A DNA stretch of 64,000 nucleotides. Origin: an uncultured Candidatus Saccharibacteria bacterium. GTDB taxonomy: Bacteria; Bacteroidota; Bacteroidia; B-17B0; Aurantibacillaceae. The position numbers were made by a program, and so were the translations under genes. The notes under the pieces were generated by a model, which saw nothing but the letters and a program-made list of their open reading frames with translations, searched no databases and had not been told where the DNA came from. The stretch covers positions 5,317 to 69,316 of the forward strand of contig CAVXOV010000014.1 in assembly GCA_963763345.1 (NCBI GenBank). Direction: 5' to 3'. Below are positions 10,332-58,776 of the stretch, in pieces (within the stretch, counting starts at the first letter, position 1; each line of letters opens with the position of its first letter).

Positions 10332-11018
10332 ATGAGCACAACAACTCTAACCGAGAAGGCGGTTATAAAAATGCCTTCTAAATGGGGCGACAGGGTGCTG
10401 CGTGTGCAGAACATTCAGACGAAGCTGACAACTAATACGTACTTCGCTACCGGATGGACAGCTGGCACGCTAACCCAAGCTCAATTTAATGCTGATGTTA
10501 CCACGTTTTTAACCGAAGCAGCAAATGCCGAAGCCCGCATCGCAGGGGCAGTTAGCTTACGCAATGCAGCGTTTAAAACCGTAAAACAGGATTTGAGTTA
10601 TGTAGAGTCGATGGTGCAAACCAAAGCCGATGCTAACCCAACTATTGCGGTAACCATTATAGAGAGTGCAGGATTATTTGTATACGTTAGGCACGGAAAT
10701 GGAAAAAGAATAAACGCCGCCTATAATACACAAATACCCGGCAAGGTTATAATGACAGCAGATGGTGGTGGGCAAACTGAATGGGAAATGAGTAAGGATA
10801 TGATTGCAATCATAAACTTACCGGCTACAAGCACTTCTAAAACAAGCGTTAGCGGTTTAACAGCCAACGACGTTTGGTACTTTAGAAGCAAAAAAGTAGA
10901 TACCCTTAAGAAAACCTACAACTGGAGTCCGTGGTTTATGCTTAAAATTGGGCCCGGCGGGCGCAATTTAGGCGGAGGCGGAACACATAGCACAGCAGGT
11001 ACTTTACCTACTGCATAA
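10332..11018 (+). CDS. Hypothetical protein, helical N-terminus + C-terminal FN3-like domain, no signal peptide
   Basis: C-terminal EWEMS...TSVSGLTANDVWYFR...NWSPW matches an FN3 pattern; N-terminal amphipathic helices (...RNAAF..VKQDL..VQTKAD..IIESAG). Confidence 0.75.
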   Translation: MSTTTLTEKAVIKMPSKWGDRVLRVQNIQTKLTTNTYFATGWTAGTLTQAQFNADVTTFLTEAANAEARIAGAVSLRNAAFKTVKQDLSYVESMVQTKADANPTIAVTIIESAGLFVYVRHGNGKRINAAYNTQIPGKVIMTADGGGQTEWEMSKDMIAIINLPATSTSKTSVSGLTANDVWYFRSKKVDTLKKTYNWSPWFMLKIGPGGRNLGGGGTHSTAGTLPTA

Positions 11019-11090: not shown

Positions 11091-11505
11091 GTTTTTTAGA
11101 CATAAATAGCGGCTATTTCTAAAGGAACCGCGGTTTGTTTCGAAGGAACCGCGGTTTGTTTCAAAGTAACCGCGGTTTGTTTCAAAGTAACCACGGTTTG
11201 TTTCAAAGTAACCGCGGTTTGTCTCGAAGTAACCACGGTTTGTCTCGAAGTAACCGCGGTTTGTTTCGAAGTAACAACGGTTTGTTTCAAAATAACCGCG
11301 GTTTGTTTCAAAGTAACCGCGGTTTGTTTCAAAGTAACCGCGGTTTGTTTCAAAGTAACCGCGGTTTGTTTCAAAATAACCGCGGTTTGTTTCAAAGGAA
11401 CCGCGGTTTGTTTCAAAGTAACCGCGGTTTGTTTCAAATTAACCACGGTTTGTTTCGAAGTAGCCGCGGTTTGTTGCAAAATAGCCGCTATGTATGCAAA
11501 AAAAC
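11091..11505. repeat. 21-bp tandem array (17 full units, 11121-11477) bracketed by ~28-bp inverted repeats
   Basis: Consensus AAAGTAACCGCGGTTTGTTTC; IRs at 11091-11118 and 11479-11505. Confidence 0.95.
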
Positions 11506-11603
11506 AGCTTGATTGCTTTTAGAAAGGAGAAGGTTTGGGGTGGGGGAGGTAGAGTTTATGAAGGAAAATTCATAATTTCTATTTAATGTTATATTTGTTA
11601 ATT

Positions 11604-14161
11604 ATGAAAACTAAGATTTTATTCCTTCTCATCGTCATTGCGGGCATAGCGAAGCAATCTTTTAGTCAAAATGGCAATTATTTTATTGATAATTATACCC
11701 CAGCCATGTATGGGGCGGGTGAGCAAAACTGGAATATTCTACAAGATAGTTTAGGGAGGTTATTTGTAGCAAATAATGATGCCCTTATGATGTATGATGG
11801 TAAGTATTGGAAAATAATTGGGGTGGAAAGGGTGGTATAGTCTCAGCGGTTTCAAAAACTCAAAAGGGACTTATACTTGTTGGCAGTGATGGAGGTTTTG
11901 GTTACCTAAATTTTATGTTTGATGGAAAAATCAAATATGTTTCTTTATCCTCAAAATTGCCAAAAAAAGAAGCTGAGTTTGGGAGAGTATGGGCAATACA
12001 AGTTATAAATGATAATTATTTCTTTTGTGCAAATGATAAAATATTATGGTATAAAGACACGAATTTTGTTGAAAGCTTTAAACCAGTCGGTGTAAAATTT
12101 CATACTTTCCTTACGGTAGGAAACACATTATTAGTAAGGGAGACAAGGGGTTGGTTTTGTTTATTTTAAAAATGGCAAACTAAATAAAATTACAAATTCA
12201 GATGAATTTGCAACGTAAAAGTATATTCAGTTTTGCCTTTTAAAGAAAATTTATACTGGGTTTGTTCAAGAAAGGGAACATATATTTTAAACTTTAACGA
12301 TAAGTCCCCTGAGTTAAGCTCATTACAAAAATGAATACACCAGCTACAGATAAATGGATGACTGAAAATAATATTTATTGTGGTGCCAAAATTAATGATA
12401 AACAATATGCATTAGGCTCTATAAAAGGGGGGCTATTAATGGTGGATAGTACTTTTAGCCCAGTGAGTTATATTAATGTAAGTGAAAATGATTTAAAAGT
12501 AGATGGAACTTCAGTATTATACATCTATGTTGATTATGCGGGGGGTATGTGGTTAACATTAAATAAAGGTCTTAGCCATGTACAAATAAATATCCATTTT
12601 CAATTGGGACTTTACAAATGGTATTAGAGGCACTATTGAATCCGTTGCAAAGGCAAACGGAACTTTATATATAGCAACTGATAAGGGGGTTGATAAGCTG
12701 GATAAAAAAACAAATAGTTTTATTCCAACAAATATTAAGGAAATGAGTTGGGATTTAATTCCATATAATAATGTGTTACTTGCGGCAACCAAAACATCTG
12801 TTTATGAATTAAATGAAAAAACAGAGCAGAAAATATTTGACTCGCCTGATGGAGCCTTTAAAATATTTATAAATCCAACTAACAAAGAGAACTTGTTTAT
12901 TGCAGGCGAATATTCTTTGCAGTTAGTCAAATATAAAGACCATAAGATGACTACTGTTAAGGAATATGATTATGCAAAAGGTATAAGAAGTATGGTGTCT
13001 GATTCAAAAGGTATAGTTTTTTTTGGTGGAGATGAATATGTTTATATGTTCAATTCAAAACAACCAGATACTTTAACCACATTTACTAAAAAAGATGGAA
13101 TAGATACTACATCTGCAAACTTTGTTTTTATTTATAATAATGAAATTCTTGTTGGCGGTATGGGAGGTATCTATAGTTTCCGTGAAAAAGATAAACCATC
13201 TTTTATCAAACAACCTAAGTATAATATAATTAAAGAAAACATTTTTATTCAAAGGGCTGAACAAGTTAAAAATGATATTTGGTCGTCAGGCTATATCATA
13301 TCTAATAATTCGCCTAATGAAAATGAAGATGAAGATGGAATTTGTATTTTAAAACAAACACCATCTGGTTTTATAAAAGAAAATAAGCAATTCCGGCAAA
13401 TTGAAGGATTAAAGGCACATTGCATAATAGATGATTCTAATAAAGTTTATATTGGGACTAATGACGGACTTATAGCTTATGACCTAAATTATAAAACCAA
13501 AGATTATCCATTTTATACTTTCATATCGAAAATTGTTCAAAAGGCTGACACAAATATTGTAATTGAAAATTACTTTAATGGATTAAACTGTCCTCCCCCT
13601 GAATTATTATATAAAAATCATGAACTAAATATATACGTATCAGCTTCTGATTATACTAATAAGAATGAATTAGAGTTTTCATACTACTTAGAAGGAGTTG
13701 AAACTGATTATTGTAAATACACAAAGGATAGTAAAATAAGCTATAGTAATTTAATTAATCTTTATGAGGGGAATTATACCCTTCATGTAAAGAGTAGAAA
13801 TATGTTGGGAATAGAAGGAAAGCCGGTTAGTTTTCCTTTTACAATTTTGCCACCTTGGTATCGTACAAAGTTAGCTTATGCCTCCTATTTTCTATGCTTA
13901 GTTTTCCTAATTATAGTTATAGTAAGATTGAACACTAAAAGATTAAAAGAGCAGAATATTAAACTCGAAAAGATTATAGCAGAACGTACCGCTGAAGTCG
14001 TTTTACAAAAAAATGAAGCTGAAAAACAAAAAGGATTAGTAGAAGAAAAACATAAAGAAGTAATGGATAGTATTAAATATGCAAAGAGAATACAGACTGC
14101 TTTAATTACTAACGAAAAGTATATAAACAATGCTTTGAATAGATTAATGAAGAAGGATTAG
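11604..14161 (+). CDS. Periplasmic beta-propeller + Y_Y_Y sensor protein with TM and coiled coil; multiple frameshifts
   Basis: Fragments 11586-11840, 11807-12169, 12331-12627 and 12743-14161 join into one protein; Y_Y_Y domain (FSYYLEG..YSNL..GNYTLHV), ILPPWY, TM, DSIKYAKRIQ. Confidence 0.75.
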
Positions 14162-51802: not shown

Positions 51803-51820
51803 CATCAGTTCTTTTTCAAA

Positions 51821-51935
51821 CTTATCAAGAAAGGCTGAGGGATACGCCCGATGAAGCCTTGGCAACCAACTAAAAGGGATAACATCCTTGGAAAACCGGT
51901 GCCAACTCGTTTTGCTGTAAAGCAGAAAAGATAAG
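51821..51935 (+). ncRNA. SAM-I (S-box) riboswitch
   Basis: cttatcaaga..gctgaggga..gcccgatgaagcc..gcaacc...ggtgccaa...gataag; P1 cttatc/gataag; upstream of metH. Confidence 0.93.
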
Positions 51936-51962
51936 TCGGATTGATTATGACGCGAAATTCAT

Positions 51963-52003
51963 AAAATCTCTTCCGACATTGTTTGGAAGAGATTTTTTAT
52001 TTT
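51963..52003 (+). terminator. Riboswitch expression-platform terminator
   Basis: aaaatctcttcc-gacattgttt-ggaagagatttt-ttatttt; gtcgga after P1 can pair with tccgac (antiterminator). Confidence 0.8.
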
Positions 52004-55000
52004 ATGGATATGACAACAGATATAAGAAAAGAGTTAGAAAAAAGAGTTTTGGTAATTGATGGTGCTATGGGTACCATGATTCAGCAATATAAGCTGGAAG
52101 AGAAGGACTACAGAGGTAAACGCTTTGCCGATTTTCATAAAGATTTAAAAGGCAACAACGATTTGCTTTCAATTACTCAGCCGCAAATTATAAAAGCCAT
52201 ACATAAAGAATACCTAAAGGCAGGTGCCGATATTATTGAGACCAACACCTTTAGCGGCACTACCATTGCTATGGCTGATTATGATATGCAGGATTTGGTA
52301 TATGAACTGAACTACGAATCTGCTAAGATTGCCAAAGAAGCGATTGCTGAATTTCTTGCTTCACCCGAAGGGAAGGGAAGAGAAACTGCTTTTGTTGCAG
52401 GTGCTATGGGACCCACTAACCGTACACTTTCTTTATCTCCCAATGTAAATGACCCAGGCTACAGAGCCGTTACTTTTGATGAAATGGTAACTGCTTATAC
52501 CGAGCAGGTTAGAGGGTTGGTAGATGGAGGAGCAGATATATTTTTGATTGAAACCATTTTTGATACGCTGAATGCCAAGGCTGCTTTATTTGCTATTCAG
52601 AATTATTGCAAGCAAATAGACAGGAAAATGCCTGTCATGGTTTCGGGTACTATTACCGATGCCAGCGGAAGAACGCTTTCAGGACAAACTACGGAAGCGT
52701 TTTTAAATTCCGTCTCCCATGTTGATTTATTAAGTATTGGCCTTAACTGCGCTTTAGGTGCTAAAGACATGAGACCTTATTTGGAAGAACTTTCAACCAA
52801 GGCGCCTTTTTATGTAAGCGCTTATCCCAATGCGGGTTTGCCTAACCAGTTTGGCGAGTATGATGAAGATGCGCATACCATGGGGCATCAGATAGAAGAT
52901 TTTTTACAAGCTGGGTTCTTAAATATTGTGGGTGGCTGTTGTGGTACAACACCTGACCATATCAGGCGCATTGCCGAGTTAGCCAAAACAGCAAAGCCAC
53001 GGAAAAAACCCGAGGCTGATACCTTGATGCATCTAAGCGGATTGGAGCCTGTAACGCTTCGCCCTGAAAGTAATTTCATGAACGTGGGAGAACGTACCAA
53101 CGTTACCGGTTCTAAAAAATTCCTGCGATTAATAAAGGAGAATAATTATGAAGAGGCCCTCTCTATTGCCCGCGAGCAGGTAGAAGGAGGTGCACAGGTA
53201 ATTGATGTAAACATGGATGAAGGTATGTTGGATAGCGAAGCTGCCATGACCAAGTTCCTGAACCTGATTGCATCTGAACCTGATATTTCGCGTGTGCCTA
53301 TTATGATAGATTCCTCTAAATGGTCTGTTATAGAGGCCGGGTTAAAGTGTGTGCAGGGTAAAGCTATAGTAAATTCAATCTCTTTGAAAGAAGGAGAGGC
53401 TAAGTTTATAGAGCAGGCAAATAAAATAAAACAATACGGTGCTGCCGTTATTGTGATGGCGTTTGATGAAGTTGGTCAGGCTGATACCTTGCAACGTCGT
53501 ATAGATATTTGCAAGCGTGCGTATGATGTGTTGGTTGATAAAGTTCATTTCCCGCCACAGGATATTATTTTCGATCCTAATATATTTCCTGTTGCAACAG
53601 GCATGGAAGAACACCGTTTAAATGCACTGGATTTTTTTAATGCTACCAAGTGGATAAAAGAAAACCTGCCTCATGCTAAAGTTAGTGGTGGTGTAAGTAA
53701 CGTATCCTTTTCTTTCAGAGGGAATGATCATGTGCGTGAAGCTATACATGGTGCCTTCTTATACCATGCCGTAAAAGCAGGTATGGATATGGGTATTGTA
53801 AACCCTGCACAATTGCAGGTGTATGATGATATTGATAAAACCTTGTTGGAACTGGTAGAGGATGTTTTGTTGAACCGAAGAGATGATGCTACCGAGCGAT
53901 TGGTTGAACATGCCGAAACCCTAAAAGGAATATCTGCACAAAAAACAGAGAAGGACGAAGAGTGGCGCAAAGGCACGGTAGAAGAACGTTTGAGTCATGC
54001 ACTGGTAAAAGGTTTGGTAGAATACATTGATGTGGATACCGAAGAAGCCAGAGTAAAATTGGGCAGACCATTGAATGTAATTGAAGGTCCGCTAATGGCA
54101 GGCATGAATGTGGTAGGTGATTTATTTGGTAGTGGTAAAATGTTTTTACCTCAGGTGGTAAAGAGTGCACGTGTAATGAAAAAAGCGGTTGCATACTTAG
54201 AGCCATTTCTTCAGGCAGAAAAAGATGCGAATAAACTGGCGGGTATTGTGGGAGATGGAAGACAGAACGCAGGAAAGATATTAATGGCAACTGTAAAAGG
54301 CGATGTGCATGATATTGGTAAGAATATTGTAGGCGTTGTACTGGCTTGTAATAATTACGAGATTGTAGATTTAGGTGTGATGGTTTCCTGCGATAAGATA
54401 TTGGAAGAAGCAAAGAAACACAAAGTAGATATTATCGGTTTGAGCGGCTTGATTACTCCATCTTTAGACGAGATGGTGCATGTGGCAAAGGAAATGGAGC
54501 GCCTTAAGTTTGATATTCCTTTAATGATTGGAGGCGCTACTACTTCTAAAGTGCACACAGCTGTTAAGATTTCTCAAAATTATTCGCATCCCGTAGTGCA
54601 TGTTAATGATGCGAGTAAATCGGTTCCTGTGGCAAGCAGTCTTATTTCAAATGAGTTGCGCGCTACGTTTATGGAAGAGGTAAACAAAGATTATAGCCGT
54701 GTGCGCGAGCAACATAAAAATGCACAAGGACAAAACAAGTTTATCTCTTTAGAAGAAGCTCGCCAAAATAAATTCCCTATCGACTGGAGTAAAGAAGAAA
54801 TAACCAAGCCAGCTTTTTTAGGTAACAAAGTATTTGATAATTATTCTTTAACCGAAATTGCCGAGTACATAGACTGGACTCCCTTCTTTATATCCTGGGA
54901 GATGAAAGGCTCTTACCCTAAGATATTAAAAGACCCTGAGAGAGGCAAAGAAGCCACCAAGTTATTTAATGATGCACAGGCCATGCTGAAGAAAATCATT

Positions 55001-55744
55001 AGTGAGAAATGGTTAACAGCAAGAGCCGTTATTGGCATCTATCCTGCCAATGCTATAGGTGATGATATAAGCCTATCCCCAACCCTTTCCGAAGGAAAGG
55101 GGGCTGCAGAGCCTATTGTTTTTCATACAATCAGGCAACAAACAAAAAAACCAAGCGGACAGTATAATATAGCTTTAGCAGATTTCATCAAACCTAAAGC
55201 ATCCTCCCCTTTGGGGAGGACTGAGGAGGGGCTTGATTATATCGGCGCTTTCGCCCTAACCACAGGTATTGGTATTGATGAGCACGTAAAACGTTTTGAG
55301 GCAGACCATGATGATTATAGTGCTATTATGCTAAAGGCATTAGCAGACAGGCTTGCTGAGGCATTTGCCGAGTTAATGCATAAAAAGGTGCGTACCGAAA
55401 TATGGGGCTATGCTAAAGACGAAACCCTGAACAACGAAGAATTAATTAAAGAAGAATACATCGGCATTCGTCCTGCGCCCGGTTACCCTGCACAACCCGA
55501 CCATACCGAAAAACTTACCATTTGGAAACTGTTGGATGTAGAAAAAAACACCGGCATTATACTTACCGAAAGCTTGGCAATGGTTCCTACGGCTGCCGTT
55601 AGCGGCTTGTATTTTGCCCACAGAGATGCACATTACTTTGGCGTGGGTAAAATAAATAAAGAGCAGGTAACAGATTATGCCAAACGCAAAAACATGCCCT
55701 TTGCCGAAACAGAAAAGTGGCTTGGAACAGTTTTGGCTTATTAA
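52004..55744 (+). CDS. metH: Cobalamin-dependent methionine synthase
   Basis: [39 protein letters not shown]; true start is ATG 52004 or 52010, after the terminator. Confidence 0.97.
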
Positions 55745-55745
55745 C

Positions 55746-55864
55746 TGTCATTTCGAGCGAAGTCGAGAAATCTTTGGGCGTTCCGGCGGTTACGCCGGCG
55801 GGCTTTGCACTACAATCTTTTGCTCGTGCCTCACAAAAGGATTTTCGTTGCAATCCCTAACGCA
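55746..55864 (-). repeat. REP/MITE-like palindromic element, copy A
   Basis: Reverse complement begins tgcgttagggattgcaacgaaaatcctttt; adjacent module tgtcatttcgagcgaagtcgagaaatct. Confidence 0.8.
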
Positions 55865-55889
55865 AATTAAAATACCTCTTAATACTAAA

Positions 55890-56750
55890 TTATTGACTAA
55901 CCCATTTTGCTGGTCTATTTATAAAATGCCCGCAAACAACACAATCCCATGCTTCCTCTTCTGTGGCACTTGAGTGTATAGCGGTCATTGAATGAAGTGT
56001 ACAGTTAGGGCATTGTTTTGTTTTACCCTTATATTTAGAATGAATTTCAGCAACCCATTTAATATCTTCTTCATGCCCACAAAAGGTACACTTAATAGTA
56101 TTCTTGTCTTGAATTATAGAAACATCTTGTAAACAACTTTGACATTCAGAGAAATAGAAAGTTTTAGGTTTATCAGATATTTTGTATTTTTCTTTTAAAG
56201 TAACAACCCGAGTACTTACATAATTTTTTACATCCTTAAGGATATTATCAATCTCCTTTGTTCTATCCTTATCCTCAAAAAACTCAGTGAAAATGTAGCT
56301 TCGGTAAAATTCAATATAAATATCAAGACCAATTGAAATTAATGAAATAAGTTCGTCACTTTTAGTTTCGAAATGGAAATGAGCAATTTTATTCCTTATT
56401 TTTCTAATTGTTTCGATGTTTTTCTTTGTTTTATCTGGAAACTTAATGGACGAAATACTTTCAATTCTTTCTAAACAACAATCAAAATTTACACTTTTTA
56501 ATTCTCCATTAAGTAACGTGGTTTTGTTTGCTTTTTTTTGGTTCTGAAATAGTTGAGTCCAGTCAATAGAAGCAATTTTACATTTTAAGAGCAGTTCTAC
56601 ACTTGTTGCTATTGCAATTAGGTCTGCTTTTAAAGTTTTGTCATCTACACGAGAGTATAATGTTCCGTCAAAATTCTTTAACCTATCAATAGCTGGAAAT
56701 AATAAGTCAAAAGAATTATTAAGAATATCTGAGGAAACCCTTTTGTTCAT
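55890..56750 (-). CDS. HEPN-like protein with C-terminal Zn ribbons
   Basis: VELLLK helix, RNKIAH (RX4H), four CxxC pairs. Confidence 0.7.
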   Translation of the reverse strand: MNKRVSSDILNNSFDLLFPAIDRLKNFDGTLYSRVDDKTLKADLIAIATSVELLLKCKIASIDWTQLFQNQKKANKTTLLNGELKSVNFDCCLERIESISSIKFPDKTKKNIETIRKIRNKIAHFHFETKSDELISLISIGLDIYIEFYRSYIFTEFFEDKDRTKEIDNILKDVKNYVSTRVVTLKEKYKISDKPKTFYFSECQSCLQDVSIIQDKNTIKCTFCGHEEDIKWVAEIHSKYKGKTKQCPNCTLHSMTAIHSSATEEEAWDCVVCGHFINRPAKWVSQ

Positions 56751-56770
56751 TACCTATTATTTTCATTAAA

Positions 56771-57376
56771 TTAATCAACACTTTTTATTACCTTAATAAA
56801 GATTTGGATATTATAAGGAATTTCTTCTCCTGTAAAATTTTTAGTTGTCCCATGATAATAATCAATAAATTCTTTTAGAATATCAATTTTAATTTCTTGA
56901 ATTACATACTGTTTGTTTCTATAATACATTGGTCCGCCCACCTTAAAATGACAAAGTATTGTTTCATCTGGAAACTCCTTATTTATTTCCTTTATATCTG
57001 AAGCGTCAAATATGTAATCTTTTTCATCTTCATCTCTTATTGAAAGGCGAGGATAGCTTAGTATTTTTGAAGTATTAACTTTCTTAACTAGTTTAAAATT
57101 ACCGTCATTATCAGAGGAGAAAGGATTTGCTGGCTCATTCTTATTTATTATACCATAAATAATAACAGAGCATATGGTTAGGAATATTATTGAATATAAA
57201 TGTGGATGTGCTGAATCACCATAAGTGTAAAGAATAAGATAACTGATTAGATATAGTGTACTATAAGTAAAAACTTTGCCTTTATTATCTTTGAAAAATG
57301 CATTACCCAACCATATAAATGGAATACTTAATAATACATAAAAAGCAAATTCATATATAGCTTGGTGTGAATTCAT
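56771..57376 (-). CDS. Hypothetical membrane protein (3 N-terminal TM)
   Basis: 201-aa AT-rich ORF. Confidence 0.65.
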   Translation of the reverse strand: MNSHQAIYEFAFYVLLSIPFIWLGNAFFKDNKGKVFTYSTLYLISYLILYTYGDSAHPHLYSIIFLTICSVIIYGIINKNEPANPFSSDNDGNFKLVKKVNTSKILSYPRLSIRDEDEKDYIFDASDIKEINKEFPDETILCHFKVGGPMYYRNKQYVIQEIKIDILKEFIDYYHGTTKNFTGEEIPYNIQIFIKVIKSVD

Positions 57377-57426
57377 ATCCTTGTTTATTCCAGTAATTTA
57401 AAAATGATATTATGAAACAAATCTAA

Positions 57427-57460
57427 TAAAAAAAATCCCGCTACTTGCGTAGCAGGATTC
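57427..57460 (-). terminator. Intrinsic terminator after 57482..58213
   Basis: Minus strand aatcctgctac-gcaa-gtagcgggatt-tttttt. Confidence 0.8.
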
Positions 57461-57481
57461 CATTTATACTCCATCAACCTA

Positions 57482-58213
57482 CTAAGTAATAATCACAATT
57501 ATGATGCTACTCTTTGGGCCATCTAAGGCTTCGTTGGTTTTGTGTTTCCAATAAAAACTCATGGCTACGCGTTTGCCAATTGTGTTTAATGCTAAATGCA
57601 AGGTGTGGTTTGCTTTGGTAGAAGTGGTTGCCGTAGTTAATAAATCAGGTGTAGCAGGTATAGCATCTGTTTGGTTTAGTATTAAATAATCTATCCCTAA
57701 ATGGTATCCGGCTAATAAATGAGCACGCTTGCTGCTTTTATCGGCGCGGGCTTCGTAGTGTAAACTTGCACCGCCAACACCTTTGGCAATAATCCACACT
57801 TGGTTAATAGTAGCTACATGTCTTTCAGTTAGTACGCCGCTACCAACTACAGGGCTGTTGTGTTTAATATTAAACATAATAAAATAGTTAATATTAGTAA
57901 CGGTTGGCGAGCCTGCCGCAATGCGGTCTAACACGTGGTTTGTTTTATCATACGCACGAGCAGCTTTAATAATGGCATGTATTGCCTTTGTGTTTACAGG
58001 GTTGCCACGCGGGTTGGCACTATATATAGTATATAGTGGTGTTATTTGCGCGAGGAAGGCTTGCCATGCAGCAAGTTCTGCCGGTAGCCAGTTAAGACGC
58101 TGCCAGTTTAGGTTAGTAAACGGAGCAGGACTGTTTAAAATTAGATACGCACAAGTTGATTGCATAAAAGCAAAAAACTTTACAATTGGTTGAGGAACAC
58201 GTTCTGTTGCCAT
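57482..58213 (-). CDS. Hypothetical protein, helical N-terminus + C-terminal Ig/FN3-like domain, no signal peptide
   Basis: ...P..PDLL....STKA.H.L.....GKRV.M...W....GPKS.I C-terminal beta-sandwich pattern; A-rich leader; own terminator. Confidence 0.7.
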   Translation of the reverse strand: MATERVPQPIVKFFAFMQSTCAYLILNSPAPFTNLNWQRLNWLPAELAAWQAFLAQITPLYTIYSANPRGNPVNTKAIHAIIKAARAYDKTNHVLDRIAAGSPTVTNINYFIMFNIKHNSPVVGSGVLTERHVATINQVWIIAKGVGGASLHYEARADKSSKRAHLLAGYHLGIDYLILNQTDAIPATPDLLTTATTSTKANHTLHLALNTIGKRVAMSFYWKHKTNEALDGPKSSIIIVIIT

Positions 58214-58338
58214 AGCTTTTGTTTTTTTTGTTTAGGTTTTTATTATTTGATTAATTGTTTGCAACGTTAGATGAATGTACGCAAATCATAAAATTTATTA
58301 ATAATTATTATGGTTTTAGCTTGATTGGTTTTTCAAGA

Positions 58339-58569
58339 CCTGAAAGTTTGCAGATGTACATCCAATAGTTGTGGATGTGCATTGAATACTTTGCGATGAA
58401 GCTTGAAGACTTCTGGATGAACATCGAAGACTTTTAAATGCGAGCTTGAAAACTTGGGATAAACATTGAAAACTTCTGAATGTAGCTTGAACACTTGCAG
58501 ATGTACATGGAATACTTTTGGATGTAGCTTGAAGTGTTTTAGAGCAAGCTTGAAAAGCTTTAGATGATG
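58339..58569. repeat. Degenerate 21-bp tandem array (11 units)
   Basis: Consensus (C/A)TTGAANACTTNNNGATG(T/A)A(C/G); units 21 nt except one 22 and one 20. Confidence 0.85.
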
Positions 58570-58587
58570 CTTTTAAACAGTATGGGC

Positions 58588-58710
58588 TGCGTTAGGGATT
58601 GCAACGAAAATCCTTTTAGTAATCTAAAAGATTGAAGTGCAAAGCCCGACGGCGCGCTTAGATTTCTCACATTCGTTCGAAATGACACAGCGCGCGCCGG
58701 AACGCCCAAA
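58588..58710 (+). repeat. REP/MITE-like palindromic element, copy B (inverted relative to copy A)
   Basis: First 30 nt identical to reverse complement of 55835-55864; agatttctc..cgaaatgaca module nested inside. Confidence 0.8.
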
Positions 58711-58776
58711 ATTAAAGCAGTTAATACCTTGCATTAAAACAACCAAACTTTAGCTAAGTTTGCAGGGTTGATATAG

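Follow-up and report, generated by a model that had tools for sequence, protein, structure and literature searches.

Plasmid centromeres, such as sopC of F (12 × 43 bp, with SopB) and the parC sites of R1 and pSK41 (with ParR), consist of about ten units that are cooperatively coated by a small protein encoded beside them, and plasmid iterons have units of about 17–22 bp with a spacing of about two helical turns. Iterons are tandem direct repeats next to the gene of their own binding protein, with a repeat sequence peculiar to each replicon (PMC7315799). BrickBuilt of Porphyromonas gingivalis is a minisatellite-containing MITE (miniature inverted-repeat transposable element), strictly intergenic and made of 23-nt units in 1–23 copies (Klein et al. 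2015, PMC4596501). Heptamer arrays of the short tandemly repeated repetitive (STRR) type are represented by the TAACTGA repeats of Beggiatoaceae (PMC4679880), and Flavo-1 (RF01705) has been described as an RNA motif (Weinberg et al. 2010, PMC2864571). Here we describe an array of 21-bp units upstream of the gene for a small basic protein, P0001, in a 64,000-nucleotide stretch of DNA (the window; contig CAVXOV010000014.1, positions 5,317 to 69,316, of GenBank assembly GCA_963763345.1). The window is part of contig C14 of a 2.8-Mb metagenome-assembled genome (MAG; G000), 75% complete, deposited as an uncultured Candidatus Saccharibacteria bacterium and placed by GTDB in the Bacteroidota family Aurantibacillaceae. 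We found that arrays of this kind are coupled to particular protein families and share their distribution among genomes. Both observations are solid. The pairing of gene and array is previously undescribed, and nothing beyond BrickBuilt was found in the literature on 21-bp arrays in Bacteroidetes.

The P0001 gene (locus 2) is an open reading frame (ORF) on the minus strand at 57482..58213, encoding a basic protein of 243 amino acids (isoelectric point, pI, about 9.5) in whose N-terminus no signal peptide was seen. An intrinsic-terminator-like hairpin with a 13-bp stem and a T tail (57461–57432, minus strand) lies 21 nt past its stop codon, so the earlier note was right to describe a signal-less gene with a terminator of its own. 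On the other side, an A/T-rich spacer (58214..58340, minus strand), presumed to hold the promoter and the 5′ untranslated region (UTR), separates the start codon from a non-coding tandem array at 58341..58572 (array 2), which has about 11 units of 21 bp and a 42-bp super-period. The spacer carries a tail motif, CAATCAAGCTAAAACC, that is common to the orthologous loci L007, L009 and L010.

Tandem Repeats Finder (TRF) placed array 2 at 58347–58572 with periods of 21 and 42, and when set out in a 21-bp register it contained 11–12 units, one of 20 bp and one of 22 bp among them. The plus-strand unit is AGCTTGAA-ACTT---GATG-A, with constant blocks TTGAA, ACTT and GATG. Junctions of AGCT follow in alternation on those of ACAT or GTAC, hence the 42-bp super-period. 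Self-match at lag 21 was 0.59, whereas 2000 shuffles gave values of at most 0.41 over all lags from 5 to 59. The upstream array of some eleven units with conserved blocks, as it had been read from the sequence, is thus confirmed. The earlier note was also correct in placing the array upstream, but the gene-proximal end of the array is 128–134 nt from the P0001 start codon and not 125 nt. Mismatches between units were clustered by column (dispersion z = 4.1, p = 0.003). Self-match at lags 7 and 14 was at background (0.27 and 0.31), which rules out an STRR-type unit of 7 nt, and a CRISPR array is ruled out by the head-to-tail arrangement of the units, with zero spacers. No other array or site with the array 2 unit was found in the assembled part of the genome, and dispersed single sites, of the kind expected for a regulon, did not occur above chance in the assembly. 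As the motif is confined to its own array, any target of P0001 would be local.

Arrays of at least 100 bp with a period of 21, 42, 63 or 84 were counted with TRF over the whole assembly. There were 122 of them, typically 170–300 bp long, or one per 23 kb, and long tandem repeats with any other period were rare; a few arrays had periods of 20, 40 or 80 bp. The original picture of two loci, with array 2 as the second of two, therefore gives way to a genome-wide class with about 40 gene-array pairs. Genes adjoining arrays were clustered into families, and a gene was scored as coupled when an array with a period that is a multiple of 21 (a 21n array) lay within 700 bp. The family of P0001 (FamC) had an array at 10 of 11 paralogues, always upstream, and the family of the locus-1 protein (FamB) at 13 of 14, mostly downstream. 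All four paralogues of FamD had an array, starting 2–46 bp after the stop codon, as did all four of FamE, where the array is upstream and the protein has a C-terminal CarboxypepD_reg-like sandwich. Together with 700-bp margins, the arrays take up no more than about 7% of the genome. At least four families of small basic proteins with helices and a β-sandwich are thus array-coupled, and the pI was 9 or higher in 35 of 37 family proteins, compared with 35% of the proteome. In a profile comparison with hhalign, FamC proved related to FamF and, weakly, to FamG and FamD, whereas FamB and FamE were separate. Period and proximity had been proposed as the conserved properties; both are indeed kept, since homologue loci retain a 21n array with another unit, but the further proposal that side is free does not hold, because side is conserved within a family.

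Comparison with the known systems shows partial likeness to each. With BrickBuilt the arrays have in common their occurrence in Bacteroidota, their intergenic position, spacer-less arrays of ~20-nt units with conserved and variable positions, many sites per genome, and frequent neighbours that encode cargo of the type IX secretion system (T9SS; Por secretion system C-terminal domain, CTD). They differ in that a single consensus is found at all 19 BrickBuilt sites, whereas the 122 arrays here comprise dozens of unrelated units with only the 21-bp period in common; array 2 is an intergenic, spacer-less array in the range of 20–23-nt units, and its unit matches no other. BrickBuilt is flanked by a leader and a tail with small inverted repeats, and the flanks here are heterogeneous. 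Among the arrays whose ends were examined, those of the locus-1 family carry a hairpin and short inverted repeats on both sides, ten arrays including array 2 have Flavo-1 at one end only, and others have neither type of flank. Finally, BrickBuilt has no coupled protein family, in contrast to the four or more found here.

Array 2 resembles the iterons of theta plasmids, and control arrays of the incA type, in being a set of tandem 21-bp repeats 128–134 nt from the start of a small-protein gene. Iteron-binding Rep proteins, however, are winged-helix proteins (Rep_3), whereas the model of P0001 has helices and an FN3 sandwich, with no Rep_3-type match in Pfam or NCBIfam. Iterons number 3–9 per origin, occur once or twice per replicon and adjoin an A+T-rich unwinding region, while here there are about 120 chromosomal arrays of 8–23 units, many without a gene. 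Rather than one origin per replicon, the 122 arrays lie on chromosomal contigs (DnaA boxes were not searched for). The likeness to plasmid centromeres consists in some ten tandem units beside a small-protein gene; coating belongs to the centromeres, and what is seen here is the array and the gene. No ParA- or ParM-type nucleoside triphosphatase was noticed beside those genes whose neighbours were viewed, there are too many copies on one chromosome for a role in partition, and the protein fold is different. STRR arrays are likewise genome-wide, lineage-specific intergenic tandem repeats, and their period of 7 divides the one found here, but the present unit is a true 21-mer and the heptamer arrays have no coupled protein families.

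The coupling extends to other genomes. A word-indexed search found 27 relatives of FamC, all of them 'hypothetical' proteins from Bacteroidia MAGs, and an exhaustive profile search found 300 representative clusters, 122 of them at E ≤1e-10 and nearly all 225–260 amino acids long. Every FamC homologue locus with enough upstream DNA (L001, L002, L003/4, L005/6 and L007–L010) had an upstream 21n array with a unit of its own. Five other genomes supplied 27 loci, about 22 of them with an array. In the remote members L081 and L083 the array consists of 42-bp units (two 21-mers) 37–81 bp 5′ of the start codon, and the coupling persists down to about 20% protein identity. The co-occurrence check proposed in the earlier note therefore came out in its favour: homologue loci with enough flanking DNA have an array with a different unit, and homologues are not generally without one. 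Orthologues of 81–86% identity (L007–L010) lie in quite different gene neighbourhoods, and the array and the tail motif are kept in all of them; a Flavo-1 element 5′ of the array is kept in L007 and L008.

The unit sequences themselves change quickly, and the arrays of orthologues have at best a weak conserved core. The greatest similarity to the array 2 unit, 15 of 21 positions, was found with a paralogue whose protein is 64% identical, and below about 55% identity the similarity was at chance level. Array units thus drift faster than the proteins, and the suggestion that an array co-evolves with its protein has an equally good alternative in co-inheritance with concerted evolution. Identical proteins were found with arrays of different length in different samples (a difference of 63 bp between L007 and L008, and of 42 bp between L081 and L082), indicating that copy number changes on a very short time scale.

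Among 400 other Bacteroidota genomes sampled evenly over the phylum, FamC was found in none. Of 15 congeners, 3 had it, as did three genomes that belong to other genera: one is of the same family, and two are of other families of the class. FamB occurred in largely the same genomes. Relatives stem from peat and palsa metagenomes. We then counted 21n arrays in sampled DNA away from FN3-family genes. Three congeners without the FN3 families had no arrays (0 in 200 kb of G403, 51 kb of G405 and 100 kb of G407). Genomes with the families had 8 arrays in 200 kb (G414), 6 in 100 kb (G439) and 1 in 100 kb (G443). Arrays and gene families therefore go together in the sampled genomes.

An AlphaFold2 model of P0001, made from a 17-sequence alignment, has helices at residues 10–25, 44–66 and 72–92 and a β-sandwich at 140–241. 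The linker at 94–136 was modelled with low confidence, yet it contains many invariant residues (D96, R97, P103, F114, H118, P121). With VIA-align the sandwich superposed on FN3 domains at Z 10.5 (rmsd 2.5–3.0 Å over about 90 residues), the match to 4yfe_B having Z 10.5 and an rmsd of 2.5 Å over 90 residues, and Foldseek gave FN3 with probability 1.0 and E of about 1e-3. On this model P0001 is a protein with a three-helix N-terminal part and a C-terminal FN3 sandwich. Sequence searches gave no match of P0001 to FN3 models (PF00041 or related Pfam), no Pfam or NCBIfam family at E ≤0.1 for P0001 or the locus-1 protein, and nothing for P0001 in a profile search of the PDB sequences. In feature and shape searches of the ESM Atlas, all clusters retrieved were annotated as 'hypothetical protein' and came from Bacteroidota and Spirochaetota.

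The locus-1 gene (10332..11018, plus strand) encodes a FamB protein of 228 amino acids with a similar predicted architecture, in which helices at 18–33, 49–67 and 73–112 precede an FN3 sandwich at 126–208 that matches the same FN3 structures as P0001 (Z 10.4). The claim that both loci encode helical proteins with an Ig/FN3-like domain is thus upheld by matching layouts and by superposition on FN3 domains at Z 10.5 and 10.4; no sequence similarity between the two proteins was detectable by BLASTP or by hhalign of FamB against FamC. The locus-1 array (11116..11488) has 17.7 units of 21 bp and is enclosed by short inverted repeats. As had been noticed, it lies downstream and is homogeneous (91% identity); array 2, in contrast, is upstream and diverged (63–73%). 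The locus-1 unit, TTTCAAAGTAACCGCGGTTTG, was found in four arrays, at 11116–11488 of the window and at C61:34725-35043, C61:94038-94305 and C61:105642-106056. A GGGCATCC...GGATGCCC hairpin is common to all four, whose ends also carry short inverted repeats (ATAGCGGCTAT), and at C61:94038 just the last few codons of a FamB-like gene are left. The idea that an array is private to its gene therefore holds for the unit of array 2, which is unique in the assembly, but not for that of locus 1, which recurs in three orphan arrays, nor for the arrays at large. All-against-all blastn of the 122 arrays yielded 25 small families of 2–7 copies, some with common flanks. Downstream of the locus-1 array, at 11586–12700, a signal-peptide gene is broken into short ORFs (84, 120 and 98 amino acids) and may be a frameshifted pseudogene.

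Across the genome the arrays are intergenic, and ORFs called over them mostly consist of the array itself. Divergent gene gaps hold 49 of 116 arrays, compared with a background of 15%. Unit variability had no period-3 signal (0.308 against a null of 0.331; 2 of 95 arrays exceeded their own 95% null), and all six frames contained stops in 18 of 95 arrays. Dyad symmetry with arms of at least 5 bp was found in 38 of 111 units, where 13 were expected; units are enriched for GAAAC/CTTTC words, and variation is focused on particular columns in 55 of 95 arrays, array 2 included. In units of unrelated sequence, A/T-rich positions also alternate with G/C-rich ones at a period of 4.2 bp, which is five times per 21-bp unit (z = 9 relative to other intergenic 21-mers). 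A-tract phasing at 10.5 bp, as would be seen with intrinsic bending, gave no signal at the second harmonic. Arrays without a gene of the FN3 type adjoin genes for secreted or T9SS-cargo proteins or ordinary housekeeping genes; T9SS-cargo (CTD) genes make up 23 of 238 array neighbours and 99 of 2717 genes overall. No multi-copy transposase, reverse transcriptase or recombinase was found among the paralogue families of the 75%-complete MAG. A separate motif of about 40 bp, AACCGTTTAATTGTTAAAATCGACCGTTA(A/G)AAAAGTTCT, was seen about 80 bp 5′ of several secreted or T9SS-cargo genes (C78:8852-8902, C82:4529-4579, C55:40850-40952, C58:1085-1192, C64:40904-40962 and others in this genome), and it looks like a promoter of the extracytoplasmic-function sigma type (AAC-N17-CGA).

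P0001 and array 2 are part of a 3.0-kb accessory insertion (55746..58745) between the metH stop codon and an LtaS-like gene. In order, it contains a Flavo-1-like element (minus), a HEPN/DUF3644-like gene (55890–56750) with C-terminal zinc-ribbon-like CxxC pairs, a gene for a membrane protein of 201 amino acids (56771–57376), P0001, the array, and a second Flavo-1-like element (plus). The HEPN/DUF3644-like and membrane-protein genes, which lie beside P0001 in the insertion, could together constitute a module of the defence type. The right-hand Flavo-1-like element (58571..58715, plus strand; 49.3 bits against a gathering score of 42) has its Rfam match at 58571–58655, with the 5′ end touching array 2, and is followed by a GC hairpin with a nested TGTCATTTCG...GAGAAATC repeat. 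The left-hand element (55747..55876, minus strand; 46.8 bits against 42) is inverted and has its Rfam match at 55792–55872. Both matches are above the gathering threshold of the family, and Flavo-1 here adjoins the array and is distinct from it; the elements differ from the described motif in forming inverted insertion ends with arrays attached at the 5′ end. In the relative G414 the insertion is absent, and the metH stop codon is 53 bp from the start of the LtaS-like gene, the flanking proteins being 90–91% identical. The inverted ends and the empty site in G414 suggest that Flavo-1 plays a part like that of a terminal repeat in a cassette without a transposase. In this genome Flavo-1 had 47 matches with nhmmer and 23 with Infernal, of which 15 exceeded the gathering score, and it behaves as a dispersed DNA repeat, which is unexpected for a single small-RNA gene. 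Polarity was constant: all ten Flavo-1-like copies that touch an array have it at their 5′ end, 0–49 bp off, and three of four FamD loci have the order gene, array, Flavo-1, all co-oriented. Together with the copies of the locus-1 unit, the Flavo-1 ends indicate that the arrays, whether a gene accompanies them or not, have the behaviour of duplicated or mobile elements. Farther to the left, a SAM riboswitch (RF00162, 71 bits; 51819–51937) lies directly 5′ of the 1253-aa metH-like ORF (51983–55744).

Sigma-54-like sites (TTTGGCACGGTTTTTG; TTTGGCACG-N4-TTG) were found 5′ of five FamC and two FamB genes in this genome (C1:22531, C3:8860, C84:132211, C88:6547, C88:47153, C82:23025 and C68:833), and these seven make up roughly half of the intergenic sites of this type that the genome contains. 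The sigma-54 consensus (TGGCAC-N5-TTG) was not found 5′ of P0001 or its close orthologues. Among seven FamC loci with such sites, in this and other genomes, the array is downstream of the promoter in five and upstream in two. At the five loci the array lies between promoter and gene and would therefore be transcribed as a leader. RNA folding energies compared with Flavo-1 orientation gave no strand preference, the sense strand being lower for four arrays and the antisense strand for five.

We tentatively interpret these results in terms of a mobile module of protein and minisatellite, the reading that we favour although it may well prove wrong. P0001 and its array would be one copy of a lineage-restricted, multi-copy module in which a cytoplasmic protein with a three-helix N-terminal part and an FN3-like sandwich is tied in cis to a non-coding minisatellite, and the array would be a platform for the adjacent basic protein. 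A period of 21 bp corresponds to two turns of B-DNA, and the protein could assemble side by side on one face of the phased array, much as Rep does on iterons or centromere-binding proteins do on sopC and parC. The effect may be local control of the module, through its own expression or maintenance, and of a neighbouring promoter. Arrays would also spread or persist as orphan, MITE-like, non-autonomous copies with hairpin, inverted-repeat or Flavo-1 ends. A bolder form of this proposal, which we consider unlikely, has the proteins as a candidate new class of sequence-specific nucleic-acid-binding helix-plus-FN3 proteins that polymerise on their own 21-bp arrays. Protein and array would then be a self-propagating chromosomal element without a catalytic transposase, the protein maintaining, expanding or mobilising arrays and the orphans being non-autonomous, and bacteria would possess a system of satellite DNA plus cognate binding protein. 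Several observations weigh against the module. No FN3-type gene adjoins about two thirds of the arrays, the unit of locus 1 is also present at three orphan loci that lack an FN3 gene, and orphan and linked arrays are alike in length, identity and column dispersion. The position of the array relative to the promoter is not fixed (five FamC loci against two). None of the known DNA-binding folds was recognised in P0001; its N-terminal domain is a generic three-helix unit, and the only matches of its C-terminal domain are to FN3 domains of the cell surface. A fixed period with a private sequence can arise by common descent and concerted evolution without selection, and the co-distribution of arrays and families rests on small samples (51–200 kb per genome) of related genomes.

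Much of this would be expected if the arrays were a selfish, BrickBuilt-like minisatellite or MITE family that arises and spreads by itself, through slippage, through unequal exchange and through the transposition of elements with hairpin or Flavo-1 ends, with the FN3-type genes as non-binding cargo or preferred neighbours. We give this explanation a limited chance of being correct. It accounts for the excess of arrays without an FN3 gene among the 122, for the 25 array families with their partly common flanks, for the common hairpin and short terminal inverted repeats of the four locus-1-unit copies, and for the array at the 5′ end of Flavo-1 in ten of ten adjacent cases. It would also fit the variation in copy number among contigs with identical proteins, the location of P0001 in a 3-kb insertion with inverted Flavo-1 ends and the similarity of orphan and linked arrays; BrickBuilt is likewise intergenic, with leader and tail, and often lies by T9SS-CTD genes (PMC4596501). 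What it leaves unexplained is the presence of an array at 31 of 33 paralogues from four sequence-unrelated families, at a family-specific side and distance, together with the restriction of the arrays, in the DNA sampled, to genomes with those families and a coupling that reaches down to about 20% protein identity; moreover, no multi-copy family of enzymes, whether transposases or others, was detected in the MAG. The array might instead act as RNA, in a 5′ leader (FamC) or a 3′ UTR (FamD and FamB, with a Flavo-1 hairpin end), where hairpins would bind the encoded basic protein for autoregulation or in a ribonucleoprotein, as in coat-protein/operator or sponge-RNA systems. The sigma-54-like promoter that is aimed at the gene 60–100 bp 5′ of the array at five FamC loci is consistent with this, as are the FamD arrays 2–46 bp past the stop codon, followed by a co-oriented Flavo-1 in three of four paralogues, the enrichment of short inverted repeats in the units and the basic character of the proteins. 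Folding energy, however, has no strand preference, the promoter lies between array and gene at other loci, arrays also occur in divergent intergenic regions and beside unrelated genes, and Flavo-1 matches in Flavobacterium psychrophilum are sense, antisense or untranscribed (PMC9723704). An RNA role seems improbable.

Contingency loci of the variable-number tandem repeat type would need no dedicated binder: the arrays would be promoter spacers whose copy number tunes or switches the flanking genes, mostly for secreted and T9SS-cargo proteins, and units of 21 bp would keep helical phase. The enrichment in divergent gaps (49 of 116 against 15%), the share of T9SS-CTD neighbours (23 of 238 against 99 of 2717 genes) and the differences between strains by whole 42- or 63-bp blocks point in this direction, but many arrays are downstream of genes or in co-directional gaps by housekeeping genes, and the FN3-family coupling and cross-genome co-distribution are left unexplained; we regard this as very unlikely. 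That the arrays encode a heptad-repeat peptide or protein, 21 bp being seven codons, is scarcely credible and was rejected. Several arrays are open in at least one frame, and array-only ORFs were listed, but the variability of the units lacks the period-3 pattern of coding DNA and 18 of 95 arrays are closed in all six frames; in addition some periods are 20, 40 or 80 bp, and array 2 itself includes units of 20 and 22 bp.

Should the coupling be functional, it would amount to a hitherto unknown use of minisatellites by bacteria or by their mobile DNA, with dozens of paralogues each tied to a private, fast-evolving array of fixed two-turn period. It would also provide a first function for several large 'hypothetical' families of Bacteroidota (the FamC profile alone covers 300 representative clusters), an FN3-based architecture for nucleic-acid binding and a natural set of orthogonal pairs of protein and array. 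Even if the arrays are selfish, some 120 sequence-diverse 21-bp minisatellites in 2.8 Mb, present or absent between congeners, would amount to unusual satellite-DNA dynamics for a prokaryote.

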